Below, piece after piece: positions 3,858 through 58,113 of a stretch of DNA of 64,000 nucleotides. The translations under genes were made by a program, and so were the position numbers. Source of the stretch: Antedon mediterranea (taxonomy: Eukaryota > Animalia > Echinodermata); assembly GCF_964355755.1 (NCBI RefSeq), contig NC_092674.1:24862001-24926000 (forward strand), in the 5' to 3' direction. The notes under the pieces are model-generated. The model had not been told where the DNA came from, did not search any database, and saw nothing but the letters and a program-made list of their open reading frames with translations. The first letter of the stretch is position 1. The number at the start of each line of letters is the position of its first letter.

Positions 3858-4121
3858 ATGTCGTCTAAAGCGGTAGCGGTAGCGATGAACAACGGTTCGA
3901 TGTACCAATCGGCTGATAAAACCACTATGCAGCGCCATGGTCATTGCTTTTTGTACCTGGTTGGGCTTTTTGTATGTTTTGCAACTGTTTGGTATGTTGT
4001 CAAACTGAAAACCGAAGTTTCGATAATGAAGACTCAGTTGACAGATCACACCCGTCAGATTGACGAACTCCGCCGAATGATGTTACAGGAGAGACCGTAC
4101 GGGATGCCCGATAGAAATACG
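3858..4121 (+). CDS. EDA-like TNF ligand (gene 1), exon 1: cytoplasmic tail, type II transmembrane helix, coiled-coil stalk
   Basis: ATG at 3858; hydrophobic segment CFLYLVGLFVCFATVWYVV followed by a heptad-like stretch; phase-0 donor ACG|gtaagt at 4122 matches the phase-0 acceptor at 11427. Confidence 0.85.
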
Positions 4122-11426: not shown

Positions 11427-11736
11427 GACAACCAAGATCTCAATAACTTGGAGGAAGAAACATCGAACGAAATAGTTGAAGTGAGCATTGAGGTGGGGTT
11501 AGATGCTGAACAAGAACCAGACGACATCGAAGGAACACATTTAACCTTTAAGGCTTTCGGCGGTACGGAAGATGATTCAGAGGAGGAGGAAGGCCCGTTT
11601 GCACAAATATTACACAAGATCAAACGTAATGTGGTTGATGAGGAGGAACCGACAGAAAGCCCAGGTAAAAAGAAAAACAGGGAGGGCAGGCGAAAATCAA
11701 AAGATGAAAAGAAGAAACGAAATAATAACGGTGAAG
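11427..11736 (+). CDS. Gene 1 exon 2: acidic stalk, putative proprotein-convertase site KIKR, basic cluster
   Basis: Acceptor tttttttacag|GAC; open acidic reading frame DNQDLNNLEEE...; KIKR|NVV; basic KKKNREGRRKSKDEKKKR; phase-1 donor AG|gtgaat at 11737 (an alternative gtgaag at 11731 has the same phase). Confidence 0.85.
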
Positions 11737-15940: not shown

Positions 15941-15970
15941 GTGACAATTCCCAAGAACCAACTGCAAAAA
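15941..15970 (+). CDS. Gene 1 exon 3 (30-nt micro-exon, GDNSQEPTAK)
   Basis: Strong polypyrimidine acceptor tttcttctttcctcag; donor gtatgc; phase 1-1. Confidence 0.65.
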
Positions 15971-17075: not shown

Positions 17076-17105
17076 ATTGTAGAAGGGCTTGTAAAAATAA
17101 TAGAG
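17076..17105 (+). CDS. Gene 1 exon 4 (30-nt micro-exon, NCRRACKNNR)
   Basis: Acceptor tttctttacag; donor AG|gtaatt; phase 1-1. Confidence 0.65.
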
Positions 17106-17838: not shown

Positions 17839-17882
17839 TACCTCCTGTCGGGTGTGGGCCATGCGCAACCAAACAAACCACG
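17839..17882 (+). CDS. Gene 1 exon 5 (VPPVGCGPCATKQTT)
   Basis: Acceptor ctttcttttatag; donor CG|gtaagt; converts phase 1 to phase 0 as the next exon requires. Confidence 0.75.
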
Positions 17883-18594: not shown

Positions 18595-18697
18595 AATAAT
18601 CATGAACACCATCACGAGCATGACCACGAGTCTCACCATGAGCATAAAGTTGGCAGCGTGCACTTTGTTGGTTACACCGAAAGCGTTGTGTCGGTTG
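18595..18697 (+). CDS. Gene 1 exon 6: His/Glu-rich linker plus strand A of the TNF homology domain (SVHFVG)
   Basis: Acceptor ccgcag; translates NNHEHHHEHDHESHHEHKVGSVHFVGYTESVVSV; VHFVG resembles EDA VVHLQG; phase-1 donor gtaagt at 18698. Confidence 0.85.
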
Positions 18698-19456
18698 GTA
18701 AGTCAACTTCTTTTGTTGACGCGTTTTTGTCATAACATATACGTTTGTACGTCATGACGCAATCGCTTTTGTGCTGTAAAGTTCAGTGTTTATATTGTAT
18801 TGTCATCTTTTTTATGGTGCTATATGTTTTGTTTAACAATTCTGTATTTTATTTGTTATATTTGTGCTTATTGTTCATCCTGTAATGCAATTTTCATCGC
18901 ACCGCATGTGTGGCTTCTTAATAATCATGCTACAATAGCATGTATTTAGTTACTCACTCACTTTACCCATTCAGCAATGCACAGATATTTTGTATATAAT
19001 ACAAGTAAAATAATACACACTCAAATGAATGAATTCAATATTTCGACAATAATTATAAAAAGTGGTAGACTGAAACACGTACAGTAAATATCTTAAATTA
19101 TGCAGTGTTTGTTAAAACAATTTTGTGCGACGCGAGGTTGGTGAAGTGTGTAAATTGTAATGTGTGACATAGCTTTTCTAACACTTGGCAAAAATAAAGA
19201 GTTTCTTTTCTGAATGGCCTAAAATACATTAAAGATGGAAGCAGCGAAAAGTTTACTTTAGAACATACTGTGGGTGTGTAATGAATGTTTTGTATTTGCG
19301 TATATGGAATGCATTCGGAAAGCCTGGTTGTTCTATTAATATGACACTATCAGGCTTTCAATGAATTGAACGAAATTATATTCATATCTCAATTTTTTTG
19401 TATAAGTATTCGGGATCACGCACATTGTTTGATTATTGTTTTCTTTTGTACATTAG

Positions 19457-19489
19457 ATGATGAGAAAAATCCAGATATGGCTTCTGTTG
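19457..19489 (+). CDS. Gene 1 cassette micro-exon a (DDEKNPDMASV)
   Basis: Acceptor ttcttttgtacattag; 33 nt; phase 1-1; donor GTTG|gtgaga; paralogous to micro-exons b and c. Confidence 0.7.
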
Positions 19490-19631
19490 GTGAGATTATT
19501 TTTATTTATTTATTGTACTAATTATGCATTAGGCTTAAATCCAACGATACAGAAAATTCAAACATTAATTCAATCGTGTACGCATATTACCACATCTTCG
19601 GTTTCGAAAATTCATTTTGTTTATTTTAAAG

Positions 19632-19661
19632 ATCCCATGAATCCAAAAATGAGAATAGTTG
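19632..19661 (+). CDS. Gene 1 cassette micro-exon b (DPMNPKMRIV)
   Basis: Acceptor ttttgtttattttaaag; 30 nt; phase 1-1; donor GTTG|gtgaga. Confidence 0.65.
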
Positions 19662-19679
19662 GTGAGAATTTTTGTGTAA

Positions 19680-20140
19680 ACATTATATATTTCGGCTGCT
19701 AAAAAAGTGATGTAACTTTAATCGTACTTCCCAACATTCATTTTTAAAAGCATGGCACACTTTGCAAAGAATCTTCTCTACGCATGCGTAGTAAATATTA
19801 TTTCGGCTGCTAATAACTATAAAAACGAAAAAGTATTTAAAAAAAAAGTGACGTAACTTTATTCGTATTTCCCAACATTCATTTTGAAAAGCATGGCACA
19901 CTTTGCAAACAAACTCCTCTACGCATGAACATTATTTCGACTGCTAATAACTATAATAACGAACAATTATTTCAACAACAAAAAATGATGTAACTTTATT
20001 CGTATTTCCCAACATTCATTTGAAAAGCATGTCACACTTAGCTAACAAACTCCTCTACGCATGCGTAGTAAACATTATTTCGGCTGCTAATAACTATAAT
20101 ACGTAATCGTATTTCCCAACATGCATTTTTGAAAGCATGC
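19680..20140. repeat. About four tandem copies of an approximately 120-140-bp unit between micro-exons b and c
   Basis: tatttcggctgctaa...cgtatttcccaacattcatt...aaagcatggcacactt recurs. Confidence 0.85.
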
Positions 20141-20428
20141 ATATTTTTCTAAACAAACAAGACGGGAAATAAGTTTGGAGTACATTACAATTATACTTTT
20201 TCTGCTTTACTGCACTTATTTAAATATACATATTTTAAGCTACAGTGAACTTTGTTTGGAATGAAGAAAAAAATGCCTGCGCCGGAAACATTTTTTTATT
20301 TTTATACACGGCGTTTGGATACAATACAAAGGTTAAAATACTAAAAGTATTGCAGTCAGGTGCCTACCACGGTCTTCAATACCACCATATAGATCTTACT
20401 TGTTTTATTTGTTCTATATGTATAATAG

Positions 20429-20461
20429 ATCGGCCGATAAATGAAGATATGGTTGAAGTGG
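20429..20461 (+). CDS. Gene 1 cassette micro-exon c (DRPINEDMVEV)
   Basis: Acceptor ...tataatag after a T-rich tract; 33 nt; phase 1-1; donor GTGG|gtgaga. Confidence 0.65.
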
Positions 20462-21405
20462 GTGAGATGATATTTTATGATTTTTTTTTCACTCTGCAAC
20501 AAAGATTCGTCTGATGTATCATTCAGAATTCTAGCTGCGACTTTATCATTCCAAAAAGTGTCACTTTGTTTGCTTTTACCTAGCATTCTGTTCCAAACAT
20601 AACCAATACATATAGCCATGCTAACACACGTTCACCAGCCTGGACAATTAATACTAGTTTCATAATCCACATAATTCATAATAATAATAATAATTCATAA
20701 TTCACAACTATATTATAGTTGTCATAATTACCATTGCTCCAGAATTAGATCAAATATATTCATTCTCAATGCCACATTCTCGATTGATTGATTGATTGAA
20801 TGGTTGACAGACTTACTAACTATCTCTCGTTTTACGTTATCTTTTCTGCATGGAATTCTACAATTCTTATCATATCATATATTGTTTGTATGTAGATATG
20901 ACCAACGAATTGACTTATAGACGAGGTTATCGACTAACTGACTGTGACTAACTAATTGACTAACTAATAACTGAGTGTGAATGTGACTGATTTTGACTAA
21001 CTAACTGGCTTACTGTGACTGTGACTGACATGATTGTTTTTTCTTCGGGCCATTCGACCATTTATTCATTCCACTAAATCACAGTTCATTACATATAATT
21101 AAAAGAAATATGGGTTTTTTTTTCAAATTAGACTAGACTTTAAAATTGACCAACATCATATGTTGTATTTCCGTCAAATTGTGTCATTTTGTTCAAACAT
21201 ATTTCACGTTTATTTTTTGTTTATGTTTACTGAAAAGCATTTTGAATAAAGTGCTTAAAGACAGAGTAAACGTTAAAGATACATTGATGATGTAACCTCC
21301 CCCCCCCCCCACTCAAACACATCAAAAATCAAAAAGTATGAAATCAAACTTTGAAAACACTTTTAAAATAATCCAAATCAAATTATTGGCACTTATTTTT
21401 TTCAG

Positions 21406-21530
21406 ATGGTCTGATTCCGTACTGGGCATATGCAGACTGGGTGGACGACTCTCAGAAAAAGATGTTTCACCTCAGCGAATTTGGAAACGTAACGGTATCA
21501 AGGGCAGGCATCTACTTCATTTATTCACAG
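21406..21530 (+). CDS. Gene 1 TNF-domain exon (strands A' to C)
   Basis: Acceptor ttttttttcag; DGLIPYWAYADWVDDSQKKMFHLSEFGNVTVSRAGIYFIYSQ with the TNF signature GxYFIYSQ; phase-0 donor CAG|gtaatt, the same junction position as vertebrate EDA. Confidence 0.92.
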
Positions 21531-22975
21531 GTAATTTGACATGATTTACTTTCTTTCTAAAAAAAACTTATTACAAAAAGAAAACAAACAGAAAAAAAGG
21601 AAAAAAAAGAAAAAATTGGAAACAACAGTACAAAAGGCACACATCTATCTTTTATTATCATTTATTCACTGGTAATTTGAAATTATTTACTTTCTTTCTA
21701 AAACAATTTTTACAAAAAGAAAACTAAAAGAAAAAAAAGACAAATTTGGAAACAACGGTACAAAAGGCAGACATCTACTTCATTTATTCACCAGTAATTT
21801 GAAATGATTTACGTTCTTTCTACAAAAGAAATTATTACAAAAATACAACAAACAGCAATGAACACAAAAAAGCAGATATCTATGCTGCACGCGGATAAGC
21901 TGTAACAGGGTTCATTATCATTACAACACTAACAGATTATAAATAGCATGCTATCGACATATTAAAAACCAGGTTAAACAAAACAAAAACATTTGGAATG
22001 TTATGGTCTTTCTTGTGCGATAATAAATCAGAAACTACTGTAGTATCCTGTTTATCATATTAATGTACGATCTTGGGCTTCAACCTTAAATCAAAAGCTA
22101 ATTTGTTTCCTCTATTTATTTATTTCATAATTTCAAATTTTGACAACAGCGCTTTTACCCACTAAGTAAAATGAGTGGGTTCAATTGTAATGTTTAATAT
22201 CTTGGATCCTGTTTTGATGTAGTAGTCAATATTACAGTTCTGTTATTTTAACCTTTATCCGTGTAGAGTGTGGGGAATTTTTTTTTTAATTTTCGCAATT
22301 GTTTTTCTACTTATCTGTTGATGTAACTATTAAACTCTTCTTATTTGCCTTAAAACGTCAACATTCAAGATATTAAATATTAATTAATTGATACATTGAA
22401 ATCAAAATATATTGCAAAGAGTTTACAAACTCATACTGTATTCATCAATCGTCGCAAAAACGGTATTAATTATTATGATATAATTACTGAATTTTACAAC
22501 AACGAAAAATCTTTTCACTGGGTTAATTTTTACTTTTATCACATTTTTTAATAATCTAATAGTATAGATGAGTTAGTATTGATATTCCTGTTGAAGTGTC
22601 AACCAGCGACCGACCAATGGGGTTATTCAAATTGAAGTCGCATATTTCCACTTCTTTAACTTTAGTTCACACGATGTAACTTAAGTTCTATGCATTTCTA
22701 TCTTGCTATTGCGCATTGCTAAAGTTTGGTTTCCAAAGACATTTTGACCAATCACAACGAGATGGATCATCCGAACTTTTGTTTGTGATTGGTCAACTCA
22801 CTTTGGTTGTTCCTTGTCGATGCACTGGGTCCAAGTGGGGACTAATCTTAACTAATTTTGTATGTTCTATACGCTTGTAAAAACATACACTTGGGAGAAT
22901 CGAGTGTCATTATCAGAAGTATAATTCATAACCGGAAGTGCTTAAGTTACATTAACATTAATACTGTTTGCTTAG

Positions 22976-23218
22976 GTTATGTACTACGATGGCGACCATC
23001 CGTTTGTCGGCCACAGTATTTATATAAACGACGAGCCGTTCGTAACCTGCACCGAATGCGTTACAAACCCAAATCTGAAATACAACACATGTTACATTGG
23101 TGGAGTGACGCGAATTCCAGAAAACGCTACAGTTGGTATTCGCGTTGGATATAACCGACGCGTCATACATTTGAGTAGCGACACTACATATTTTGGGCTG
23201 GTTGGATTAGGGAAGTGA
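22976..23218 (+). CDS. Gene 1 alternative terminal exon A (C-terminal half of EDA-like TNF domain)
   Basis: Acceptor tgtttgcttag; VMYYDGDHPFVGHSIYINDEPFVTCTEC...KYNTCYIGGV...DTTYFGLVGLGK*; aligns by eye to EDA (VYY...DEKPFLQC...YNTCYTAGV...TTFFGAIRLG). Confidence 0.9.
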   Translation, partial: VMYYDGDHPFVGHSIYINDEPFVTCTECVTNPNLKYNTCYIGGVTRIPENATVGIRVGYNRRVIHLSSDTTYFGLVGLGK

Positions 23219-23491
23219 TGAACCTAAGTCTTGATAAGATGATTATGCGTGCGCATGGTCTATTTTTCTTAAGGGACAATGGTAACACTTTGCACAAGCA
23301 GTCATACATACACTATGTCTGCTGTCGCAAATTAGAACATAGTGTAAATATGTACGGGAAAATGAGTTATTTTGTACATTGTATTGTAAGTTTATGACGT
23401 AATTAAGTTCGTCATGGTAAGATTTTGTCATCACAAATTATCCTTAAAATTGATCCATGAACTGAAACTGTGGCGTCTGTTTTAACTACAG

Positions 23492-23725
23492 GTACAGTAT
23501 TACGATGAGAATGATTTTACCGGACACAGTATCATGGTTGACGGTGAACCATTTGTCTCCTGTACCGAATGTCCCGTCAACAATTACCGCAAGTATAGTA
23601 CCTGTTACGTCGGTGGGGTAATTCGACTAGAGAAAAATGCCCAGGTAGGCATCAACGCAAATTATCGCACTAACATCAGACTCGCCAGTGACACGTCTTA
23701 CTTTGGTTTTATCAAACTTGTTTAA
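23492..23725 (+). CDS. Gene 1 alternative terminal exon B (duplicated C-terminal half of TNF domain)
   Basis: Acceptor ttttaactacag, phase 0; VQYYDENDFTGHSIMVDGEPFVSCTEC...KYSTCYVGGV...DTSYFGFIKLV*; intact ORF, about 55% identical to exon A in a manual alignment. Confidence 0.88.
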   Translation, partial: VQYYDENDFTGHSIMVDGEPFVSCTECPVNNYRKYSTCYVGGVIRLEKNAQVGINANYRTNIRLASDTSYFGFIKLV

Positions 23726-23920
23726 CGCGTCGATGTGTGGCTTGTTTAACGTATCGATGTGTTACTTGCTCGCGTCGATGTGTTACTTGCTTAACGCGTC
23801 AACGTGTTACTTGCTTAACTCGTCAACGTGTTACTTGCTTAATGCGTCAACGTGTTACTTGCTTAACGCGTCAATGTGTTACCTGCTTAACGCGTCAACG
23901 TGTTACTTGATTAACGCGTA
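23716..23920. repeat. 24-bp minisatellite (GTGTTACTTGCTTAACGCGTCAAC), about 8 copies, starting at the stop codon of terminal exon B
   Basis: Directly visible. Confidence 0.92.
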
Positions 23921-24218
23921 TATTAGTTTAGTAAAATGGCCATCTTCTTTGGCACAGTTTCATGGATCAATTTCGGATATTTATGAGACAAATTCTATCA
24001 ACTAATTATTAGAAGTATTCAGGAAAAGTAGAACCAACATTTTAAGTATACAGCTTAGTTCTTACTTGGATGGGAAATTAGTTTGACCAATCTGTCACTT
24101 GTGATATTGATCAAATTGCATTTTCGAGTTGTACGGCATTGCGTTTACGTTCAAAACAGAGCGTTTACATCATTGCGTTTACGTCCAAGTGGAAACAGAG
24201 CTAGACAGTTTATTTATA

Positions 24219-24234
24219 AATAAAGTGTAATAAA
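24219..24234 (+). terminator. Candidate polyadenylation signals for gene 1
   Basis: Two AATAAA hexamers (24219, 24229) are the first seen downstream of both terminal exons; none seen between exon A and exon B. Confidence 0.45.
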
Positions 24235-26454
24235 ACAGTATATTATTATATAATTATATATAAACCCATAGAATTTAATACAAATATCTTTATTTAAAAT
24301 CACAAAGCCGTTTTTAGGAAAACGTCGTTAAGATAGTAGGTGGGAGGTGGTCAGACAAATAATAGGTGTAAATTGTATTTGAATACTCATTTTCCCTTCT
24401 GACTCATCATTGGAACGAAAAACACATGTTGAATAACAGAGCGTTTTGTTAAGGTTAAAATTGACCCATATTTGTGAATATACAATTTGGGAAATCCCAT
24501 TAATCTTGTTTTAACTATACTTCTCAAACGCAGCGCATTTCGCAACTAATGACCTTTTAAAAATAAAAGAATAACAGCAACTCTTTCCTTTCTTTTGGGA
24601 AAATAGGGTCGGTGGTTGGAATCCAACAAACAATTTTGTTAGTCATAATGGTTTTTGTCTTGTTATATTTTTCTAAAACGTGAACATGGAAGTAAAAAAA
24701 ATATAGAATAAAGTAACGAAACAGAAAATTACGTCAGCAATGTGACGTCATCATTCTATTATTCTGAAATTAGTTGCAAAATGGAAACAAAAACTTTGAT
24801 CGAATCATTACAAATAATCAGATTTTATTAAAATAAAATAAATAAAATAAAAATAATTTATGGTTAACATTGAATTTTCCGGAAAAGGGGGATTTTTAAC
24901 CTTTAACCTTTAACCTTTAAGGTTTAGTTTAAATTGGTATTGATCATATAACTTCTTTTCTGTTACGTCCATGTTCACTTTTAACTAAATACTATTAATT
25001 TATGAAGTTTATCATTTTTGTAAATATTAGTTTAAGTTATTTTAATTTGTATTGTTTAACCACTGCCTTGTTTTTGTATTCTGTTCTGTGTGATATGCAA
25101 TATTTATTTTTCCAAAGAAGTTATTTCAGTTGGAGGGGTAACCATGTCTAAGGTGTTAAAAAAAAATTCACACTGGCGTTGTTATAGTATTGGACGTTGA
25201 TGCTATAATCACGCATTTTGTGTTATACCGTGGAGGTATTCATCCATGGTTATCTACCATATTCTCCCTACTGTATATATGATTTGTACGGTATCATCGC
25301 AAATACCGTAATGCAGTGTCATATATTACGCCTATCAAAGCCTAATTTAACCCAACCCTAACCAAAACATATAGTATTGCAGTTGTCACATGTTATATTT
25401 ATGAAACACTGTATGACATAATTTGCAATGATACTTGACAGATTAATGCCATTTGTGTAGATCGTACAAAGAATCGGGTGGTTATACAGTAACATTTGCA
25501 CTTTTCTTATTCCATTTGGACTTTCCAACAGTTTTTCTGTGAGGTTTTAAATTTCACCCTACACTAACTTCTACCCATTTAGCATGTTGATCATGATAGG
25601 ATTAAGTTCCAACAGAATATTCCTCGTAAATCTGTAACATTTTGTCAGTGATACTACGACGTTACGTGCGCGTACAAACATACGTACGTACGCATAAAAC
25701 TAATTCGTGCGATCACTGACAATTTAGGATACCTCGTGTACAGGCCTCAGTAGATTTTAATAATGTATATTATTTTCGTCTTGTAAATACATATTTTGAA
25801 ATAATAAAAGATATACCGTATACGTTGTGAACAACTTTGTTTATATCGTTCTAATAATTGAATTACGTAAACGAACGGAATGACTTGACCTACGTCAAAT
25901 ATAGAAAGCCGTAACCGTTTAATTCAGTCATATTGCTGATAATGACTCTTTTGATAGACGATGATAACTGTGTTAATATGAAGAAAAAATAATACGCAAG
26001 AATTTATTATATATATATTGATAATAATTATGATGATGATAATGCGAAGGTACTGATAATGATTGTGTGATGATGATAATGATGATGTTGATGATGAAGC
26101 AGTAATACTCCGGTGGATCTCGATGCCACGTATTTCAGATCATCACTGCCTGGTTCATACATCTACACCACCGAGTTAGTGTTGGATTCGAGACCAAGGA
26201 AGTTGTGCCTTTACTATACTAGACCTACTCTTGCCTTGACTATACTAGACCTACTCTGTCATAATAGTAATTGATATTCGAGAAATATAGTCTAAATTAG
26301 AGTTCATAAATATACTTATATAAAGTAAAATTGACGTCGGAGTATTAGGCCTAAATCAACACATCTGACCAATAACAGTATATATATATATATTGTATAC
26401 GGAATGCTATTCATGTCCCTTTAAATAATGTATACTGTCATTTCAAGGAATTTT

Positions 26455-35975: not shown

Positions 35976-36239
35976 ATGTTCAGTCAGTTTGATATGCCAA
36001 GCAATGAAGTCGGCTCATCAGAAAAAGCCGCCAACGGAAAAGGACCAGAAGAGATGCGAGGAAAAAGTTCTTCTGCAAGAACGTACCTTAAACCGGTGGT
36101 TTTGGCAGTTTTTACAGTATTCATGGTCAGCATTTTCACGTGGCAAACAGTGTATTTGGTACGGGTCTCAAATAGGTTAAGTCTTGTGGAAGAAGCCGTC
36201 CCAACGTCCAGTACTTGGCTCGCGAGTGACGACACAGAG
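35976..36239 (+). CDS. TNF-superfamily ligand gene 2, exon 1 (type II transmembrane)
   Basis: ATG at 35976 (alternative 35994); TM segment VVLAVFTVFMVSIFTWQTVYLV; phase-0 donor GAG|gtaggt. Six-exon model gives about 301 aa. Confidence 0.85.
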
Positions 36240-37552
36240 GTAGGTCTAATCGCTTTATTTTTTAATTTTGTAGAGGCATTCGCTGACGTTTAGGCTTATT
36301 TAAGTGTACAATTAATTTGATGTTTAAATTATTCTCATCGATAATAGCATTATAATTACTATAGGCCTAGTATACTAAATAGTTGCTATTATTCATTTTC
36401 ATCATTATTTCACTTTTAAAGAAAGTCTAAAATCTTAAACAAATAAATAAAAAGATAAAAACGAATTGAAGAAATTATAAATGCATTAAAAACATGCGTT
36501 TACAAAAAAAAAAAAAAAGTAACGCTCAGAAACCGGGCTGGTTATTTATATAACAAATTGTTGTTCCTTGGCGACACATTTCAATTAAAAAACGTGAATT
36601 ACAAAAATAATTACAAAAATATAATGTATTTCAAAAAATTATAGCTGACATGGTCAATATTAACTTTAGAAACACACATCTGGGTTGATCCACTTAGATC
36701 AAGACACAACTTTGCGCTGATTACCAGCTGCATTATGGGAGTATGTTTCCATATGTGTTCCAAAAAAGTACTTGGGTAATAATGTTCAGCCCTTAGAGGT
36801 TTCACAACATTAGGCGCTATATAAATACAGGATATTATTATTATTATCCTACAAAAATAAAAAGTATTTGTAGGCTCACATCATAGTTTATTTATCATCA
36901 AGAAAATATTTTAAAATAAGTTGTTTCTTGATAGGATTTTGGTATTGCTTTTTCTTGGGTTAGTTATTTTTATACAAGTGCAGTTATTATCGTTATTTCT
37001 TAAATCCCAGCAGAAATCAGGACAAAATAACACCATTTGTTTAAAAAAACTACAGAATGTCTAAAATAAAAAATAGTCAGACATTTTTTCAGTAGTTAGA
37101 TAGTTCAACCTACCGTATCTAACTCCCCAAAACAGAAAAAAAACGTGCAACAAAAGTTGGGTGTGTGGTAGATAATAATAATGTAATAACAAAAAATAAC
37201 ACAAAAATGTTATAGAATGTTTTGCCACACTGTTTATTTTTCATATTTGTTTTAAATTGCCTCTGTCAATTATTAGATTAGTGTGAGTCGTATTTTCGTC
37301 TACAATACCTGTTGGATTTCGTAGTTACAGATACCAGGGATGTGTTTTTATAGGCCTACCTCCCTGCAGATACGTTTCCATTGTAGGGTTTATGATACAG
37401 CCACAGCAAGCACCCATTGTCTGAAACAGTATGAAGTCCTTAGTCCTAAATTACATATGTGAAGCACTGAGGGCGGTAGACATTATTTGCACAATTTTAC
37501 AATAACAACAATATTGTAAATTAATTTGATTTTATTCTGTTAAAATCTACAG

Positions 37553-37577
37553 ATAGAAGAAACATTTAAGAGCAAAC
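37553..37577 (+). CDS. Gene 2 exon 2 (25 nt, IEETFKSK)
   Basis: Acceptor ctacag; donor gtaagt; phase 0 to 1; forms KSKR across the junction with exon 3. Confidence 0.7.
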
Positions 37578-38337
37578 GTAAGTATATTACTTGTTTAATA
37601 GTATACAAATAATGAATGTTTTTTAGTGTAATGGTACAAATAATGTTACGAGGTGAATGATGAAAGTAATATTATTTCAACGAGACAAAGTCGAGTTGAA
37701 ATATAACCTTTCATCATTCACCAAATGCCATTATTTGTACCATTACACGAATATAAAACATTCATTATTTGTTTTATATAACATCTAAATAAATAGGTTC
37801 TTGTTATTTGAATCAGATTGAATAAAAGGTATTGATTCACATTGTTGAAACAGTAACATTTGTTTTTTAATAATAATTATATTAAATATTATATTTATTT
37901 GGATGTTATAATCACACTTCTACTGTAGGCCTAGTGTTAATTATGACAACAAACAACTAAACAATCCGATCCTTTTTTGTTGTTGTGACCCTATCAATAT
38001 ATATCAATATATATCAATATATATCAATAAAATACAATAAAAAGAATAAAAGACAATAACAAAAGTATCGATAATTATAACTGTGAAATTGTGGATATCG
38101 TTGTGCTACATACAAAATGTATATTTCATTAAACCAAGTGAATCAGACATAACTTGAATGTGTTTTCGTTGTTTTTAAGATACAAATTATCCTATTATTT
38201 AATAATATAAATATTATAATTAATTTAACGAGGGCACGTTTTTGACTGATGTAATGTTTGTATAATGTATATCTCTTCACCATATTGGGGAAAATCTGAT
38301 TGAAATTGAAATTACTATCATTTTCTCCAACATTTAG

Positions 38338-38387
38338 GATCAGTTCCGGATGGAGATTCTGTGCGTCACAACCGTCAACAAAACCAG
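38338..38387 (+). CDS. Gene 2 exon 3 (RSVPDGDSVRHNRQQNQ)
   Basis: Acceptor ttttctccaacatttag; donor CAG|gtaagt; phase 1 to 0. Confidence 0.75.
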
Positions 38388-38439
38388 GTAAGTCACCATC
38401 ACAATATCTCATACTATTTTAGCACACCGAGTTTCTCAT

Positions 38440-39095
38440 CATGTTCCATCTTATCTCACCTTACTTCCACCTCATCTCATTGTATCCTAGGCTCACTTTT
38501 TATCTCATCTAACCTTCCTCTAATCTCATCGTATCTTAAGCCTTACTTTTTATCTCATCTAATCTCCCTCTAATCTCATCATATCCTAAGCCTTACTTTA
38601 TCTCATCTAACCTCCTTCTAATCTCATCGTATCCAAGGCCTCACTTTTTATCTCATCTAACCTCCCTTTAATCTCATCATATCCTAAGCCTTACTTTATC
38701 TCATCTAACCTCCCTCTAATCTCATCGTATCCTAGGCCTCACTTTTTATCTGATCTAACCTCCCCCTAATCTCATCATATCCTAAGACCTTATTTTATCT
38801 CATCTGACCTTCCTCTAATCTCATCGTATCCTATGCCTCACTTTTTATCTTATCTAACCTCCCTCTAATCTCATCGTATCTCAGGCCTTACTTTATCTCA
38901 TCTAACCTCCCTCTAATATCGTCGTATCCTAGGCCTTACTTTATCTCATCTAACTTTCCTCTAATCTCATCGTATCCTAGGCCTCACTTTTTATCTCATC
39001 TAACTTCCCTCTAATCTCATCGTATCCTTGGCCTCCCTTTTTATCTCATCTAACTTCCCTCTAATCTCATCGTATCCTAGGCCTCACTTTATCTC
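38440..39095. repeat. Approximately 48-50-bp tandem repeat (tctcatctaacctccctctaatctcatcgtatcctaggcctcacttttta) in gene 2 intron 3
   Basis: Directly visible, about a dozen copies. Confidence 0.93.
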
Positions 39096-39421
39096 GTCGT
39101 ATACCATCGCATTTCCTATAACACCCCCATTCCGTTTCAGTTCAAACCCATCCACTTTCAAATTAATTAATGAGGTAATAATTTGCGGTAACATAATTGT
39201 CAAATCAAAGCACCATTAAAAAAAAATTAAAGAATAAACACCATAAAACCTATGATCGCATAGCCTAGAAATCGATACAAGTCAACGGCGGCTGTAACAG
39301 CAACTAGTAACAATTTGTCGCAGCCAATCATAAGTTCCTATCTCGGTAAGACTGTTAGATTGCCTGGATACAATGAATTGTTAGTTCTAATAAAACATGA
39401 TCGTTTTAATCTTGGTTATAG

Positions 39422-39518
39422 AGTGGTCGACAGAACTCACGACGATACATGACGTCACGAACTGTACCGTCTGTCCACCTTGTTGCCAACACCAAGTCTA
39501 ACGACCCTATTGAAGCTG
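39422..39518 (+). CDS. Gene 2 exon 4: TNF strand A (PSVHLVAN)
   Basis: Acceptor ttatag; SGRQNSRRYMTSRTVPSVHLVANTKSNDPIEA; phase-1 donor gtaagt. Confidence 0.82.
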
Positions 39519-39920
39519 GTAAGTTAACTCTTTTCTGGAAGTTTTCGCAAATGTAATTTGCATGTCGTTTACAGGATTCGAACCGCACATGTGTTTTTTC
39601 TAAATTTATTTCCTTCACTGTGTTAATATAAGAGGTTAACGGGAAAGAATCATGACCAGTCACCTGCAGTTAGTTAAAATTTGATGATTTTCTCAATATT
39701 TCGTTTCTACATGATTTTCTGTTGTTTTACTTAAACGTATTGTGACGTATTCGTTGAAGAAACCTCACATTATGACGAACGCAAGTGACATACGTATGGG
39801 CGGCCATTAGGGCCAGAATAGACAATGTATAAATATACAGAAATGACAAAACACGAACGCGATATAAATGTTTACTCTTTTAGCATTATGTTTATATTTT
39901 GATATTTTATCGTTGCTTAG

Positions 39921-40161
39921 AGAATTTTGTCAGATGGCGCAACGCTTCATCGGTTCTTCGTCACAGTTATCTACCAGTAATAGATGATACCTTTGTGAGG
40001 ATCGTAACATCCGGGTTTTACAACGTGTATGCACAATTAACAATGGAAATAGATGAAGCCGACCGAATGCATGCAAAAAAGTACGGGTTCCAAGTTACTA
40101 AAAGTGATCGTATTACCGGAGTTCACACGCCTCTCCTGACAGCTAGAGGTGTATTGTTTAA
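39921..40161 (+). CDS. Gene 2 exon 5: TNF domain core
   Basis: Acceptor ttgcttag; VRW...VRIVTSGFYNVYAQL (GxYxVYAQ motif); phase-2 donor AA|gtaaga. Confidence 0.85.
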
Positions 40162-40695
40162 GTAAGACCTACTATTTTACCTTTAATCAACTTTATTTAG
40201 GCCTAATGCTTAAAATGTGCATGTATTTGTACCAGGGAGGTGAAAAAAATAATAATTATTATTTTTTCACCTCCCTATTTGTACATCCATGACAGACATC
40301 TAGAATAAAGTAAGCGCTCAGATACTGGGCAAAATACAGTAAGCTACTAATACTTAACATAGGTCATACTATATATAGCATTAAACTATGTTCAGTAACT
40401 ATTTTAGATAAAGATAACTAGAGTTTGTGTAAACAGCGTTTGCCAACCGAAATGTTTGGTCTACTGGTACTGGAGCCTTAGGTTAGAGGTCTATCGAGAA
40501 AAATGTTTTTAAATAGTTGAGAGAGATTGTTTAGAGGGTTAGGTTTAGTATATTTATTTTATTATTTAAAAAATAATGCTAGCCGGACATAATAATTGAT
40601 CATGCGTAGTTACTGTAGTATTGAATTTGAAACCATCGGAGAATTTCTTACTGGAAGAATACCACTGAGTTTAATGTCTTATTTTGTATTTTTAG

Positions 40696-40924
40696 AATAG
40701 GCGGTGTCGGTGGAAGCCTACAAGCTGGCGTCGAGACCAAGCATACTAGTGGACAATTCTTTTTATGCAGAGGTCAAGAAATCGGTGTTAGAGCAGACCC
40801 AACATTTAAACTTGGGTTGATTCTGGTGTCCGATGTAAACACAATAGATTCATCCAGTTTTCTTGGCCTTTGGAAAATAAAAAATGCGTATTATGCTGAC
40901 GAGGAAAACAGATACTGCAGCTAA
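40696..40924 (+). CDS. Gene 2 exon 6: TNF strands F-H and C-terminal tail
   Basis: Acceptor ttttgtatttttag; ...TKHTSGQFFLCRGQEIGVRAD...SSFLGLWKIKNAYYADEENRYCS*; not in the ORF track (no start codon). Confidence 0.82.
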
Positions 40925-41746: not shown

Positions 41747-43726
41747 GTGAAAACAAGGGGAAATATAGTGTTTAAACTTACGGCCAGCCCTAGGGGATAA
41801 TCCTAATGGGAAACTTCGTTGGGCCTGAATGTTTCCTGGTGTAATTTCACTGTCGTTACCAAACACAAATGTAGGCCTATTCTGTCATTGGGTATGTTTT
41901 ACCATCTATTTTGTATGTATATCATGTTTCATTAATTATTATTAATTATATGCAGAAGAGACCCCTATGGTAATCTTTGCTAGCAGTTATGTTATTATTA
42001 CACATCAATGTTCTGTGTAAAATCTCGAATAAGTTGTTGTCATACCGCCCTCTTTTTATATGTGTTGGTTTCTTCACCTAACTTTTGCATTTTATTGAAT
42101 TATCAAAAGATAAGTTATTTCAAGTAAGAAAATCTCGAGCGGATACTTTCAAATCTCGAGCGTATACTTTGTTCACCATATTTTTGTTTGCCAACTTTTT
42201 AATTAAAGCCATTGTGTAGAATTATGCATGTCTTCTGCTATTTACCGAAGCTTGTCAACTGGTCTTTCTTCGTGAGAAAGATTTTCACTGGCATGAAAAC
42301 TTTTGCAAGATTAGCCTTGCTGTAGTGTATATTGCGACACTGCGACTTAAGAGCGGGCTAAGTATCTCAAATGTCGCGTTATCCTGTATAGTAAATTGTA
42401 AATAAAACGTTTATGTTGATTATATATATATATATATTTTTAGATTTAGCTTTAAAAATTCATTGAATTAGGATATTGACTATAATATACTGTTATAAGT
42501 ATTTAAAATTAAAATTTAAATAAACATGCAGTTGCAAAAATGACTGAAAATGATATTCTGTTTTGTGCCCATTTCGTTTTTGCTCATTTTTTTTGCATCA
42601 CTAATGTTTTCAGTGTTTTAATAATATTAAAAAACAACGTTTATATAATAATAATAACCCAGCGGGAGTTTTCGCTTTGATTGGCTGTGCTCAAATTTGA
42701 GTTAGTATTTACCGACAGACTGACCGAACAACCGACCGACATAGTGAGCTGTTAGAATCGCGGCGTTTGCACGCGACTAAAAAATAGATTCAACCTCAAT
42801 CAAGAATAGGTATGGCACGCCATGTGTGACGAAATGTTTTCTTTTTACGAATCACTTATTTAACAACCTAATCAGTTATTTAATATATTTAACCATTTCT
42901 GCATAAAAAAACTTCATTTTATTCGTCACGTGTCTGCGTCCGTCTAAAATAACAAGTACGCAGCGGGTGTGCAGTAATTGAAATGTCACAATATTTTGAC
43001 GCGTTTCAAGTGTCATATCATATTTAATATTCCGGAGTGTCTCATTCTGTAGAGGGCCGGAAACTTAATTCATTTGGTATAATACTTCACAAGTTTACCA
43101 CCTCAAAAAATCTAATTTTGACAAAGAAAAATGGTAGAATTCTAGAGAGAAGTTAACTGATAACATAGTTAACGAATATATTTGCAACACATCTTGTTTT
43201 GACAATTAAAATCCTGTGTAATCTCGGAAACGAGAAGAGGCATTAATCTCACTATCTCTTCTTCACTCTTCCCTGGTGGAATCTTGATTGATAAATTGAT
43301 AAACTGGAGCAACACAGTCCTTGCACCTGAATAATTTTACTGTGTGGTTGTTGCATTCCCCGATGATTTTTATTATTAATGACAGAAATCAGTCTGCAAC
43401 AAAAAGATTATATTAAATGCCTAGAGGGGCAATTGCTGAGAGGCCATTGGGTCTCACACTAGCCTTAGACAAGGCATGGTGTTTCTCACAGTCAGGATCC
43501 AACAGCACCATTGCCGAGGGGGAAGTTGCGGCAATCATCTAAACTGTTACAGTCTCAGATGAGGGTGGTTGGGCCTAGAGCGCCTCACAAATTGGAAGCT
43601 AACGATACGTTTAAGAAACTGTCGATTTACAAGGCAAACACAGTACGTAACTGAAAGTCAGTCGCAATACTTTGCAGATTTTCCTATAGAAACAAAATAA
43701 AAACACTATATACAGATACCTTTAAA

Positions 43727-43891
43727 ATGTATGTACATTTTTGCAAAAAGCATAGTTTTCTGCAGTTACTGTATTTAGTTGTGGTACTATTTCTTTGTGT
43801 GGATTCCATGGGTTTGAAAGGAAAACCAGGATGTGCAAGGTATTACTACGCAGAAAAAGTTTCACATCCAAAGAAAAACTGTCACCCAAAG
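43727..43891 (+). CDS. NDP: Norrin (Norrie disease protein)-like cystine-knot growth factor, coding exon 1
   Basis: Signal peptide LLYLVVVLFLCVDS then CARYYYAEKVSHPKKNCHPK, compared with human [20 protein letters not shown]; phase-0 donor AAG|gtaaga at the same position as the vertebrate NDP intron. Confidence 0.88.
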
Positions 43892-44374
43892 GTAAGAATT
43901 TCTTTTTATTGAAAGTTCACGTGCAGATTAGGAAGACATTGCAATCATCGAAAAGTAAACAAATAATATTATTAATTATTATCATTATGAAATTTCCATT
44001 TTATTTAATTGTTTACTTTCTTCTTTAATAAATACATACACTTTAGGATAAATTCGAGAAAGTAAAAAAGAGAGAAGGCAGAAGAAAAAAAAAGAGAAAA
44101 AGCTTGTGATTAGCAAATTAAAAAATTTAGCAAAAAATCAGCAAAACAAAAAGCAGCAAAACGGGTTACTGTATCATATACCGTTAATTATTATTAAATA
44201 CATTTTAACATTTAAAATTGAAATGTGCATATTTTGTGAGAAAAGCTTGCATGAAAATCCCATATTCAAGGAAATGTAACTAGATTGTGAAATTTGTGAA
44301 ATTATTCACTGAAAATACAATAATTAATTTTTCATTTTTTTGTTAATCAATGCAAACAAGGCCATATAGTTGGC

Positions 44375-44905
44375 TGCAGTCGCGTGCTCAGGTTAGTGTT
44401 TACCGACCGACCGACCAACCAACCGACCGACATAGTGAGCTGTAGTGACTAAAAAATGTTTTTATAAAGTTTGAAAAGGCAATGTTAAATCGTTATTATT
44501 ATCAATATTATCCCATACATAATATCAGCTTTTTATCAGTTTCTAATCCCGATTAGCTCACTATGTCGGCCGGTGGTCGGTAAACACTAAATGTCAGTAA
44601 ACACTAACTCAAATTCATATTTTTTCGTTATTTTGACAGTGGATATTAATACTTGGAGGCAAATATAAATGTTTTAAAAATATTAAAACATTTTTTAACA
44701 TTTTCAGTAATTTCGGTCGGTTGGTCGGTCGGAAAACACTAATGTCGTTAAACGCTAACTCAAATTCATATTTTGTTGTTATTTTGACAGTGGATATTAA
44801 TACTTGGCCTGGAGGCAAAGTATAAATGTTTTTAACATTTTCAGAAATTTCGGTCGGTCTGTCGGTCAGTAAACACTAACTCAAATTTGTGCACGCGACT
44901 GCAGC
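44375..44905. mobile_element. Fragments of a DINE/HINE-like non-autonomous element in the NDP-like intron (another copy at about 42690-42785)
   Basis: (ccga)n microsatellite, then catagtgagct, then a gcacgcgactaaaaa end, in both orientations; family assignment is from architecture only. Confidence 0.45.
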
Positions 44906-47014
44906 CCTGGTTTTTCATCGGAATCCAAATTATGTTTGTTGTTGGTCGAATAATTACAAAAGGAAATACATAAAATAGAATACTGTAGGCTACTGAATTT
45001 TGTTTTGAGAATACTTTTTTGTAATTATTTCATTTTGTATTGAATATTAAATCAAACAAACAAAAAATAACTTTAAAAAAAAATGTATTTTTGAACTGTA
45101 TTTTGATTTTTAATGTTATGACATTTCATGTTATGGTGACTCTGTTGCTTTTGGGGTCCCAGGACATGATGTCGAATAAATGAAATGAAACGAAAAGATG
45201 TTTTAATGTTTCACGTTTTCTTCAAGCATTCTTTTGTTTTGTAGGCTACAATAACTAGTTATGTATGTTAATGATTTTGTGAATGGAAATAAAGAAAGTA
45301 AAGCAAGAAGGCATTATGGCTTACAGTACACATTGTATAGTATGCTATCTAATTTCTCTACCAATAACTTTTTGCAAACAATTTTCATAAATTGATATTG
45401 ATATTTTTAGCGGTACCGTTATTACCGTAGGTAATTGGACCAGGTGGCGGTACCGCTGTGCCCCGTTGTATCATCTGCACCTTTAGATTAAAGGTAACAT
45501 AGGAGACCAGGTGATTCATTTAAAAATGACAATTTGTTCCCCGGATATTGGAATTTGAATGAGCTACTGTAACAAAAATGTGATAACTGCCCAACTTACT
45601 TGGCAACATGAGTACTTAGATTTCATACGTGTATCTTATAGATGAATCTATATTAAATAACCGGTTTGTGTGGGAATATTCCTGTATCTCTTTAGAGGTC
45701 ATCAGTGTATGGTACGATACCAGCTCACTTGGCGTATGATTTTATATATTTTTTAATATAGGAAATTGAGATCGCAGGAGTTTATAAATACAATTTTTTC
45801 TTTCTGAATTATTGAAGAAGCTTATATTATTAGCTCAACATTTTCGAATTTGAATTTTTTTTTTCACCATTTTGACACTCATTTAAAATGTTTGTAGTAC
45901 TTATTTTAATTCAATCTATTTAATTTTTGTTTTAGACTGGTATGCATGAAAAAATAGTAATTAATTTTAATTATTGATAGGAATATAGGATTAAAAATCT
46001 AAGTGTTCTTATAGTCGTTCGTTATCGTCATAAAAGGGCCTTAGGTCAACAAGTTTAAAGGTCTGTCTACATTGTTATTTTCATATAATTCTCTTCGCCG
46101 TCTTTCATTCGTTGACTATTATTGTTATTTCATTTCGTCAAACCGCGTATCAAAATGTATCTTAATTATTGAATTCTACTATTAATTAGTTTTACCGCTT
46201 ATTCGACCCGAGTGCGAAGGCCGGTGTACTTAGCATTCGTGCTCAACTTTAAACATGGCTAATTAGTACTGTAGGTCCGCAATTAGCAAGCAGTAATTTC
46301 AACTTGATGACAGCGTGAGTTACTAACGAGTTAACGATTACATTTTCTTAGGAACTTGTTAAGCTGGGCGTTACCAGAGGCATAAGGTTTGCAAGATCAA
46401 TTACAAGCCGCTGTTATGATAGCGAGAAGTTGGCTTGTCAAGAAAACATTTGTCACTTTGCTACGCTGACATTATACAAATGATTACTCGTTTGATGTCG
46501 CGATAAAAATCACAATCATTATTATGCCATTGGCTAATAGTACTTCCGATATTGTAACAGTAATAATAATATAATTTCCTAAATTGACATACCGAACAGT
46601 TATTTATTGTGTCCGCCTGGAGAATTTATTTTTAAATTGTACATTTTTTTGTTCAGAACATTTGTCTAAAATATTTGTGTTTTATTCTACCGTAATATAT
46701 GAAATGAGTTCTTTAAAATGAGAAACTGAACTCAACATTTTTCGCATTAAAATTAGAGCCGAAAAATGGATGATAAAGTTACGTTCCACCCTGATGTTCT
46801 TAATACCTAGGCCTAAACAACAAAAAATAATAAAGTTCATCCGATAGGCCTATGGATATGTCTATCATACAGATGCAGAGTACAAGGCAGACCGATAATA
46901 CGCCTACATTCATTTCGCGTCATCTCGGATATGAGGCACTTCGAAAAAGAAAAGTGCCCTTCTCCACTTATAACCGTTCTATAATTAATTGTAGTTGTTG
47001 ATTGTATTTTGCAG

Positions 47015-47260
47015 ATGGTGTTATTGACTCGCTGCAACGGATACTGCGCCAAATCGTCATCGGCGGAACCCGTCATCAGTTTTCGTAGCGTTGTTCGTCA
47101 TCCGTTTAAATATAACTGTCAAAGTTGTCAGGACCTAACCTCGTCCATGAGAGCAATACGCCTACAGTGCGCCAACAACGAACGAGTTTACGCCACCTAT
47201 CGGTACATACTAGAATGTTCATGTAAATCATGTCGAATCGATAGGCGCAGTAAGTCATAA
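47015..47260 (+). CDS. NDP: Norrin-like protein, coding exon 2
   Basis: Acceptor attttgcag; MVLLTRCNGYC...EPVISF...PF...C...AIRLQC...ATYRYILECSCKSC matches human MVLLARCEGHC...EPLVSF...ALRLRC...ATYRYILSCHCEEC; total 136 aa. Confidence 0.92.
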   Translation: MVLLTRCNGYCAKSSSAEPVISFRSVVRHPFKYNCQSCQDLTSSMRAIRLQCANNERVYATYRYILECSCKSCRIDRRSKS

Positions 47261-53432: not shown

Positions 53433-53612
53433 ATGGTTGTTAAAGATACCGATAAGAACAACGGCGCATCATCTTTAAAACGTCTAACTCTGTTGTTTAC
53501 GTTAGCGTACGGAGGCATCCTCCTTTTGGGATGTGTCTCGTTGTATTTGTTTTATTCTGTTCACCAACTGAAGGAGGACAACGATTTATTGATAAGCGCA
53601 CTTGATAACGAT
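53433..53612 (+). CDS. TNF-superfamily ligand gene 3, exon 1 (type II transmembrane)
   Basis: ATG in context gccatcATGg; TM segment LTLLFTLAYGGILLLGCVSLYLFYSV; phase-0 donor gtaagt at 53613. Six-exon model gives about 271 aa. Confidence 0.85.
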
Positions 53613-53784
53613 GTAAGTACATTTAGTTATGCATGTTCAGGAAATTTATTTATAGGTCCATGCCATAATCATAGACCTAATTTATAGGTCCATGATCATG
53701 TAATTTGAAAAGTAATTTATAGGCATGTGCGCTATTATACAATGACATTAATCTGTTTTTATGTATTATATTTATAACCTACAG

Positions 53785-53833
53785 AATGGTGAAAGTAACT
53801 ACAGAGCGATAGTACGAAACAGACGTAACCCGA
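53785..53833 (+). CDS. Gene 3 exon 2 with furin consensus RNRR
   Basis: Acceptor cctacag; NGESNYRAIVRNRRNP; phase-1 donor gtaagt. Confidence 0.78.
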
Positions 53834-54690
53834 GTAAGTATCTTATGTATTGTTATATAATTATAACCCGTTGAGTAATAATTAGTAATTAAATATAATC
53901 AAAATATATTTCTTTACGCTAACGTAAATTGCGCTCTTGATACAATGTGTGACCCCTGATACTATGAAAGCACTTTGTTCCTACTGAGATGCAACGAAAG
54001 GATTTAAAGGCATTCGGATTGTCGCTTGTGATGGTTTCGTTGTTGCGTTGTGTGGAAACAGACCTTTAGTATCAAGTACATTAGAATGTACGTCATAATA
54101 GGGAAAAACATATTACCATTACGTCATAATATGGGAAAACATCTGACCATTACGTCATAATAGGGGAAAACATCTGACCATAATCAATTTATTATTGTTT
54201 CGAATATTACTAAATAAATCAATAGATTTATAATCAATATTGCACAAATCACTTGCAATACGGAGTAATACTAAGGTAATGACACAAGATGTCAAGATTA
54301 TTTTTAGAACAAACATTAGTCACATGTGTCATGGCTAAATAGATTTGTGATGCAATCAATAATTTCAAATAATTTTCTAAACAAATTTATTTATGTAGCA
54401 CCACTTTTGAAATTAAATATATGTTGTTTGATTAATTTTTATTTTCGGTCGGTAAATGTAGTTTTGTATTGCAATGTGCTCATAATTTATATAAGCAATA
54501 ATAATTTTAAATTGGGTGGTATATGTTGTTGCAGTTGAAATGCGTGTCCTTAAAGTTTGAAAACTATTTGCGGGGGTTGATGGTGATAGGCCTACAGCTG
54601 ATGAATAGCTGATTTATTAATGCATGTAGACGGAGTGTAGAAATTAGAATCGTATTTTGTTATTCACATGACTTATATTTATCTTTACAG

Positions 54691-54704
54691 GTTCAAACTA
54701 TCAG
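54691..54704 (+). CDS. Gene 3 exon 3 (14-nt micro-exon, SSNYQ)
   Basis: Acceptor tttatctttacag; donor CAG|gtaagg; supplies the required phase 1 to 0 change and mirrors exon 3 of gene 2. Confidence 0.7.
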
Positions 54705-54816
54705 GTAAGGCTTTTAAAATTATTCTATACGGTATAACCGTAAAGTAGGTCTAGTGCATGACGTCGACAGACTGTACATGCGCTAAGTTTCCAGCAGCAT
54801 ACGTGAACCATGGATG

Positions 54817-54970
54817 TTAAGCTATGTCTATACTGTCGAACTAGTTTGTGATGTACCCAAATATGGTAGTGATATGCCCAAATATGGTAGTGATATGACA
54901 TCATCATGTCCATAAATAGGCATATCACTTTTTTTTTGTCACATAAACGTTGATAGTGGTAGATAGAGTA
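54817..54970. mobile_element. MITE family A copy (reverse orientation)
   Basis: Same core in reverse complement; degenerate TIRs. Confidence 0.7.
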
Positions 54971-56729: not shown

Positions 56730-57040
56730 ATGATGGTGCTGTTGAAGATGTTGATGATGACGATGTTGAAGATGATGGTGCTGATGAAGATGATGATGGT
56801 GATGATGATGATGATGATGCTGATGATGAAAGTGATGTTGATAATGATGATGTCGGTGATGGTGATGGTAATGATGATGATGTTAGTGATGTTGTTGATG
56901 ATGATGATGGTGATGATGATGGTCATGTTGATTGTGAGATGAAGAGGATTATTTAGATGTTGATTCGATTATTTTGATGATGATGATGATAATGATGATG
57001 TTGATTCGATTATGATGATGATGATGATGATGATGATGTT
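56730..57040. repeat. Imperfect (GAT)n microsatellite in gene 3 intron 3
   Basis: Directly visible. Confidence 0.95.
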
Positions 57041-57115
57041 AGTATACTTGTTTATGTTAACATTTTTTTTATTATATAAAAAAGAACCTTACCAAAAACT
57101 AAATCTATATTGCAG

Positions 57116-57191
57116 ACGAGTAGACGGCACTCAATAATGGTCGGTTCCTCGGCACACATGGTCGGTCACATAGAAGCAAGACTATCCCGCG
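57116..57191 (+). CDS. Gene 3 exon 4: TNF strand A (SSAHMVG)
   Basis: Acceptor attgcag; TSRRHSIMVGSSAHMVGHIEARLSR; phase-1 donor gtaggt. Confidence 0.8.
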
Positions 57192-57845: not shown

Positions 57846-58113
57846 GACAATGGCTGACTTGGTGCTTTAGGAAAACATACAGCAAGCCGACTAACGCAAC
57901 AAATTGCGTTTCGACACTGAGTCACAGTGATTTTGTAGTTGCCGACGATAAGCGGACAATCACCATACCAAAATCTGGTTATTATTTTACGTACGCTCAA
58001 CTACTAACAACGGCAAAATCAAGTGCGACTAAGGGTTTTCAGATAGCAGCTATACCAGGAGGACGAATATCTGAAGCCTATCCGGTCTTGTCCGGTTACC
58101 AAACACAATATCC
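57846..58113 (+). CDS. Gene 3 exon 5: TNF domain core
   Basis: Acceptor cattttcag; WLTW...ITIPKSGYYFTYAQL; phase-2 donor CC|gtaatt. Confidence 0.87.

Follow-up and report, generated by a model that had tools for sequence, protein, structure and literature searches.

The window analysed here is a stretch of 64,000 nucleotides (nt) from the feather star Antedon mediterranea, a crinoid (NCBI RefSeq assembly GCF_964355755.1, contig NC_092674.1, positions 24,862,001 to 24,926,000, forward strand), and all coordinates count from its first letter. It contains a gene for an EDA-like TNF ligand, and an earlier note had pointed to positions 18595 to 23725 of this gene as a candidate combinatorial splicing system that varies the receptor-binding domain. 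In a full-library search (80 hits at E ≤ 0.001), the top match is RefSeq XP_071951137.1, isoform X2 of A. mediterranea, whose cluster contains a single further protein, RefSeq isoform X1. Both isoforms are reproduced letter for letter by exon chains of the window, 3858-4121, 11427-11736, 15941-15970, 17076-17105, 17839-17882, c1, m1, m3, c2, and then t1 in isoform X1 or t2 in isoform X2, the last exon being the sole difference between them. Splicing was also read from contigs of a sequencing run of another sample (run X1, not to be confused with isoform X1), which is RNA-like by guess, judging from its exact exon joints; introns are covered in it at depth 4-7 (pre-mRNA or DNA). The features of the gene are the following.

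3858..4121, forward strand: coding exon 1, cytoplasmic tail and transmembrane/coiled helix of a type II membrane protein (matches the RefSeq X1/X2 translations; helix 28-77 in the model)
11427..11736, forward strand: coding exon 2, acidic/basic stalk (RefSeq chain; a run X1 contig covers it and leaves the genome at the donor)
15941..15970, forward strand: stalk exon 3, 30 nt (RefSeq chain)
17076..17105, forward strand: stalk exon 4, 30 nt, two Cys (RefSeq chain)
17839..17882, forward strand: stalk exon 5, 44 nt, two Cys (RefSeq chain)
18595..18697, forward strand: c1, constant exon with the His-rich linker, strand A and the start of the A-A' loop; phase-1 donor (splice ends, open frame, run X1 joints, model)
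19457..19489, forward strand: m1, cassette micro-exon, 33 nt (joints 18697>19457 and 19489>19632 in run X1; in RefSeq X1 and X2)
19632..19661, forward strand: m2, cassette micro-exon, 30 nt (joints 19489>19632 and 19661>21406 in run X1; absent from RefSeq X1/X2)
20429..20461, forward strand: m3, cassette micro-exon, 33 nt (RefSeq X1/X2; in run X1 no joint is listed and one contig runs unspliced through m3)
21406..21530, forward strand: c2, constant exon with strands A', B', B and the first half of C, ending at the YSQ phase-0 junction (splice ends, Pfam, run X1 joints, structural alignment)
22976..23218, forward strand: t1, proximal last exon, 80 residues, strands C to H (RefSeq X1; a run X1 contig starts at its acceptor AG)
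23219..23491, forward strand: spacer of 273 nt, 3' untranslated region (UTR) of the t1 transcript and intron end for t2, without AATAAA/ATTAAA (contig, hexamer scan)
23492..23725, forward strand: t2, distal last exon, 77 residues, within the 3' UTR when t1 is used (RefSeq X2; purifying selection against t1; covered by the t1 contig)
24219..24851, forward strand: candidate poly(A) hexamer cluster, likely a shared 3' end (7 hexamers in 23726-25300; the 2,154-nt run X1 contig extends past 23768)

The exon coordinates given in the earlier note hold for all seven exons from c1 to t2, each of which is preceded by AG, with GT after the internal ones. Its statement that every combination stays in frame holds as well, all 16 of 16 exon chains being stop-free to a terminal stop. 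Pfam PF00229 (TNF) matches t1 (5e-5) and t2 (1e-6), both above the cut-off; these matches and the RefSeq pair bear out that the gene has two complete alternative last exons. The protein has type II membrane topology, with an N-terminal hydrophobic stretch and the TNF domain at 247-403. In contrast to EDA, the stalk of RefSeq X1/X2 has no Gly-X-Y (collagen) run, and PF00229 is the only Pfam family listed; the three small stalk exons stand in place of the collagen repeat, and the Cys pairs of two of them could form inter-chain disulfides. Exon 2 holds basic clusters, where a putative furin site of the stalk could lie.

The gene belongs to the EDA-like TNF ligands. All 14 PDB matches at E ≤ 0.001 are EDA, Eiger, BAFF or APRIL, and EDA is the best single-domain solved relative of t1, of t2 and of the whole domain. 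Residues C349 and C363 (strands E and F) are invariant in a 21-row alignment and are presumably the disulfide pair of the EDA-like group. In a tree with an unresolved backbone, the crinoid gene groups with echinoderm EDA-like paralogs (91/91), and a grouping with vertebrate EDA alone is rejected (p=0.037); the two crinoid isoforms share 40 identical residues, so their sisterhood in this tree is forced and was not used.

Between c1 and c2, run X1 contigs show cassette splicing of m1 and m2. Four of the eight listed joints are exon junctions among c1, m1, m2 and c2: c1>m1 and m1>m2 at depth 17.8, m2>c2 at 9.3 and c1>c2 (18697>21406) at 8.5, the last two carrying one base difference beside the acceptor. 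The other four are length differences within introns or repeats. Runs X2, X3 and X5 derive from one sample and give 135 joints, and none of the 15 that are listed is an exon joint. Together with the RefSeq models, three of the eight possible loop states are seen, namely none and m1+m2 in run X1 and m1+m3 in RefSeq. Because m1 is joined to m2 in one source and occurs with m3 in the other, and a form skipping all three exists, a one-of-three choice is rejected: the micro-exons are stackable cassettes. The scheme of six mutually exclusive isoforms (3x2) thus falls, and so does the suspicion of a single constitutive path; of the proposal of independent cassettes with 16 isoforms, stacking and skipping stand, and the full count goes beyond the loop states seen. 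No run X1 contig or RefSeq model joins m2 with m3, and these two may exclude each other.

The three micro-exons are paralogous, as had been proposed. Compared with shuffles over exon and flanks, the score is 63 for m1/m3 (shuffled mean 23) and 38 for m1/m2 (21.5), each with p=0.003; no other pair of the 21 falls below 0.05, m2/m3 being at p=0.09. The resemblance of m1 to both others over exon and flanks indicates tandem duplicates. The c1-c2 intron holds 37 in-frame AG..GT candidates of 15-60 nt, and the three that pass a splice-site filter are m1, m2 and m3; the thresholds were set with the exons already known, and the same filter passes 2 in 7,200 nt, 0 in 4,160 nt and 0 in 1,439 nt of three other intron stretches. 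When m1-m3 are compared with the cassettes of 15-16 residues in starfish, urchins and amphioxus, p lies at 0.02-0.05 (uncorrected) for 4 of 15 pairs, which is suggestive only. Between m2 and m3, a 140-nt repeat that includes a short palindrome occurs three to four times at 19701-20158; its copy number differs in run X1, and it could affect the m2/m3 choice.

Of 77 aligned residues, 43 are identical between the last exons t1 and t2 (56%, so that 44% differ), at 55% nucleotide identity. Their codons agree at 48, 55 and 24 of 77 first, second and third positions, with a proportion of synonymous differences (pS) of 0.85, which is saturated, and a nonsynonymous divergence (dN) of 0.42, indicating that both have long been kept as coding. 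Judged from this codon comparison, t1 and t2 arose by an old duplication, and purifying selection has acted on both. A run X1 contig of 2,154 nt starts exactly at the t1 acceptor AG and spans t1, the spacer, t2 and about 1.3 kilobases past 23768. Since the contig is unbroken and no AATAAA or ATTAAA lies in the 273-nt spacer between t1 and t2, t2 is 3' UTR when t1 is used. The choice is therefore likely one between two alternative acceptors, 516 nt apart, before one shared 3' end, and the t1 and t2 transcripts would share a poly(A) region. All 21 gap letters of the run X1 allele fall in the spacer and none in t1 or t2. The allele differs by 2 replacement and 3 silent changes in t1 and by 6 and 4 in t2, without stops, numbers too few to test.

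Among 2,963 six-frame segments of the window, a profile search picked out no last exon besides t1 and t2. Splicing from t1 to t2 was considered and rejected, the sole GT near the t1 end being out of phase and altered in the run X1 allele. At 21491-21827 lie three tandem copies of the 3' end of c2 with its donor, spaced by 141 and 122 nt; the two extra copies have no acceptor and look degenerate.

Both modules can be placed on the TNF domain of EDA. In the available part of the report on the EDA-A1/EDAR crystal structure, the main receptor patch (patch II) is the A-A'' region, Q256-D273 (Q256, S258, A259, Q261, D265 and D273), where the D265G substitution abolishes binding, and patch III is formed by the start of strand C and the EF loop (Y310, Y311, K340, T341 and Y343) (PMC9918506). 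Counting 12 residues on from the strand-A His, the micro-exon site corresponds roughly to EDA N264-D265. It is also here that the EDA models of shark and ray show a three-residue difference, which fits a shared intron, and we take human EDA to have an intron at the same position. The junction between c2 and the last exons, after YSQ, aligns with the vertebrate EDA-A1/A2 difference; in addition, the CD loop of t1 is one residue longer than that of t2, and t1 and t2 differ at the positions equivalent to K340/T341. The alignment supports the placement of both modules on two of the three human EDA receptor patches, in agreement with the earlier proposal that the modules vary the receptor-binding domain.

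A model built on the 21-row alignment has a jelly-roll core with a predicted local distance difference test score (pLDDT) of about 90, a disordered stretch at 262-275 (under 50) and a short strand at 279-282 formed by the end of m3; the single-sequence fold is poor (mean pLDDT 46). A hydrophobic stretch of four residues, similar in each case, closes c1, m1, m2 and m3, so whichever of these exons comes last before c2 would supply the short strand. The model suggests a strand exchange in the loop, in which the last cassette would form the strand and the preceding one would be unstructured.

Comparable arrangements occur in relatives, which are represented here by RefSeq/GenBank protein models and not by locus DNA. 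The amphioxus EDA-like gene (LOC144923575, LOC144883830, B. lanceolatum XP_066267086-92; named EDA in CAH1245634/5) combines a loop cassette of 11 residues with as many as four last exons, which begin after YSQ. Of the eight cassette-by-last-exon combinations, all 8 occur among the 10 isoforms of one hybrid amphioxus assembly and 7 among the 8 proteins of B. lanceolatum; another hybrid assembly has three full last exons and one truncated, each with and without the cassette. Two older amphioxus models fuse several last exons consecutively, as expected of tandem exons. Orthologous last exons are 84-96% identical between species and paralogous ones 35-64%. The strand-F Cys retained by EDA, by the crinoid exons and by amphioxus exon a is gone from exons b, c and d, and exon b lacks the other Cys too; this points to structural divergence between the copies. 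In the sea urchin Diadema (XP_071477452-6), a 16-residue cassette combines with two middle exons (42% identical) in 4 of 4 combinations. In another B. lanceolatum gene the loop carries one of two different inserts or no insert at all; an insert present in Asterias models is missing from the Acanthaster X5 model; and Lytechinus has 1-3-residue variants at the same loop point. As for the copies that the earlier note had expected in related genomes, amphioxus has four last exons, whereas the starfish, urchin and hemichordate clusters have one per gene among the isoforms retrieved. A last-exon tree (38 rows, 77 columns) places t1 next to t2 as its sister (91/88) and unites all 12 amphioxus rows (82/83); neither grouping is starred. 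The tree favours independent duplications in crinoid and amphioxus; an old duplication masked by conversion would be an admissible alternative.

Taken together, one crinoid EDA-like gene splices two duplicated TNF-domain modules combinatorially, which would likely give a small panel of ligands with different receptor-binding surfaces. In the first module, paralogous micro-exons of 10-11 residues are skipped or stacked between c1 and c2 (phase 1); the last one before c2 would set the receptor-facing strand, and the choice of cassettes the loop length. In the second, the donor after YSQ would pick the proximal t1 or the distal t2 acceptor, likely before one poly(A) region, and so swap the whole C-to-H half of the domain. 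Exon duplication would thereby diversify the binding half, with promoter, membrane anchor and stalk kept in common, and by analogy the isoforms may differ in receptor preference and might form heterotrimers, as the earlier note had proposed. The same design appears in the amphioxus gene with its four last exons and in Diadema with its two middle exons, likely of independent origin. More tentatively, invertebrate deuterostomes (crinoid, amphioxus and sea urchin) may have repeatedly turned an EDA-like gene into a combinatorial ligand code in which each isoform addresses different TNF receptors, EDA-A1/A2 being a miniature solution at the same junction.

Several observations weigh against the reading as a ligand panel. 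The excess of replacement differences in t2 may mean weaker constraint, and the t1 contig, which crosses the t2 acceptor without a break, hints weakly that t2 is little used in that sample. The use of m3 is taken from the RefSeq models, and that of t2 from the RefSeq X2 model and the conservation of t2. Among the junctions singled out as decisive in the earlier note, 18697>19457 and 18697>21406 are present in run X1; 21530>22976 (c2>t1) and 21530>23492 (c2>t2) are not among its eight listed joints, the body of c2 being uncovered, so this is as uninformative as the absence of m3 joints, and its contigs do not connect the loop state with the last exon. A second crinoid was not found (0 of 28 candidates with t1 as query; residues 240-401 of isoform X2 retrieved only itself among 88), nor did two metagenome scans yield anything. 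Finally, the approximately unbiased test (p=0.08) leaves room for trees in which t1 or t2 pairs with exon a of amphioxus.

Rather than a specificity code, the isoforms could form a dimmer, an alternative that we consider unlikely but worth taking seriously: by analogy, loop-long/loop-short or t2 forms would be weak binders that enter mixed trimers and thereby reduce the activity of the ligand. Such an effect is described in the available parts of PMC9250527 and PMC4349256 for deltaBAFF, which lacks an in-frame exon and forms inactive heterotrimers, and similarly for beta-APRIL. A 21-22-residue insert at the main EDAR patch could simply block binding, the amphioxus models include truncated last-exon forms, and the crinoid cassettes are skipped in frame in run X1. 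However, an inhibitor needs no duplicated, separately conserved binding halves, and the dimmer does not account for four distinct amphioxus last exons kept at 84-96% between species or for the fold residues kept by crinoid t2. We find it more doubtful still that the variation is near-neutral, with an A-A' loop that tolerates inserts, tandem duplication that is common locally and t2 as a minor, slowly relaxing back-up. The clearly non-coding duplicates at 21491-21827 and 19701-20158 would fit this, as would the length from the His to YSQ, which varies freely from 51 to 91 residues among relatives, and the more numerous replacement differences in t2; yet synonymous sites are saturated at an intact frame and a dN of 0.42, all micro-exon lengths are multiples of three with strong donors, and the m1+m2 and skip joints occur at comparable depth.

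Three mutually exclusive micro-exons with two last exons, a small Dscam-type cluster, would suit paralogous tandem exons of one phase and the separate occurrence of m2 and m3, but we consider this very improbable. It is already contradicted for m1 by the m1>m2 joint, the skip-all joint and RefSeq m1+m3, and the m1-m2 and m2-m3 introns (142 and 767 nt) give no steric block. Inverted repeats (78 pairs) offer no clear docking site, the 25 shown being mostly AT-rich and none common to all copies. That t2 is an assembly artefact (a collapsed haplotype) or a remnant of a neighbouring second gene can practically be set aside, no point in its favour having been found: it is refuted by a single contig, from a different sample, that takes in t1, the spacer and t2, 55% nucleotide identity rules out alleles, and no upstream c2-like exon fits in 273 nt.

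Downstream on the forward strand, two more genes for type II membrane proteins (35976-40924 and 53434-58488) have weak TNF-profile matches (E 0.001-0.1 in a window-only search), no Pfam TNF match on single exons and a different intron layout, and would make this a small TNF cluster. Between them lies a Norrin-like cystine-knot gene (43655-47260, forward strand; best PDB match Norrin, E 1e-22). A separate gene on the reverse strand (59939-63253) has exons with PAN and laminin-G-like Pfam matches.

TNF repertoires are usually measured by counting genes, a measure that would fall short of the ligand diversity in echinoderms and amphioxus if a single gene makes several ligands that differ in the binding half. 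Such natural half-domain swaps, 35-64% identical in an identical background, would be usable to map TNF-receptor specificity, and the question is directly testable in amphioxus, where the available part of PMC13367198 (section 3.1) reports annotated EDAR-like receptors. A full-text literature search that covered few subscription papers and no supplements found no description of duplicated TNF-domain exons in these animals, nor of an exon-duplication system in any TNF ligand, although it did find EDA-A1/A2 and deltaBAFF; the earlier note likewise knew of no such description for a TNF ligand, and a prior mention is possible. In their available parts, PMC7674686 contains neither 'splic' nor 'isoform' (0 each), PMC13367198 neither 'splic' nor 'exon' (0 each), and PMC2772990 and PMC6001812 do not treat duplicated TNF-domain exons. 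The crinoid isoforms were already in RefSeq, unremarked.

Tandem duplicated exons also diversify a recognition surface under one promoter in Dscam1, whose exon clusters are mutually exclusive. The likeness drawn in the earlier note is loose overall: the crinoid gene shares tandem paralogous exons of one phase, whereas the rule of exactly one per transcript fails for the micro-exons and holds only for the last-exon pair. Moreover, unlike in Dscam, the forms are a handful and not thousands, no docking-selector pairing stands out among the 25 inverted pairs shown of 78, and the product is a ligand. The amphioxus and Diadema models share with the crinoid gene a loop cassette at the same place and duplicated TNF-domain exons. 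In amphioxus there are four last exons and a collagen stalk, in Diadema the middle exon is duplicated, and only in the crinoid is the cassette triplicated.

Among EDA-related ligands, deltaBAFF and beta-APRIL resemble the crinoid gene in skipping a small in-frame exon, which in deltaBAFF is presumably that of the A-A' loop; there a single exon is concerned and function is lost, whereas the crinoid stacks three paralogous cassettes and has a second module. In vertebrate EDA, an alternative donor changes two residues between A1 and A2, and the variable junction lies at the same YSQ/V point. A splice choice of this type is present at the strand-C junction in the crinoid, as seen in the junction alignment and RefSeq X1/X2, with the difference that a duplicated exon swaps the whole downstream half. 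According to the available part of PMC9918506, the difference between A1 and A2 alters the shape of strand C and of the EF loop and determines the receptor bound (EDAR versus XEDAR/EDA2R). That splicing tunes this ligand group is known from EDA-A1/A2 and deltaBAFF/beta-APRIL; what the analysis adds to the earlier note is the amphioxus and Diadema systems and the cassette logic. Seen in this light, the EDA-A1/A2 switch and the skip of deltaBAFF type belong to a broader pattern in which splicing varies at two constant junctions.

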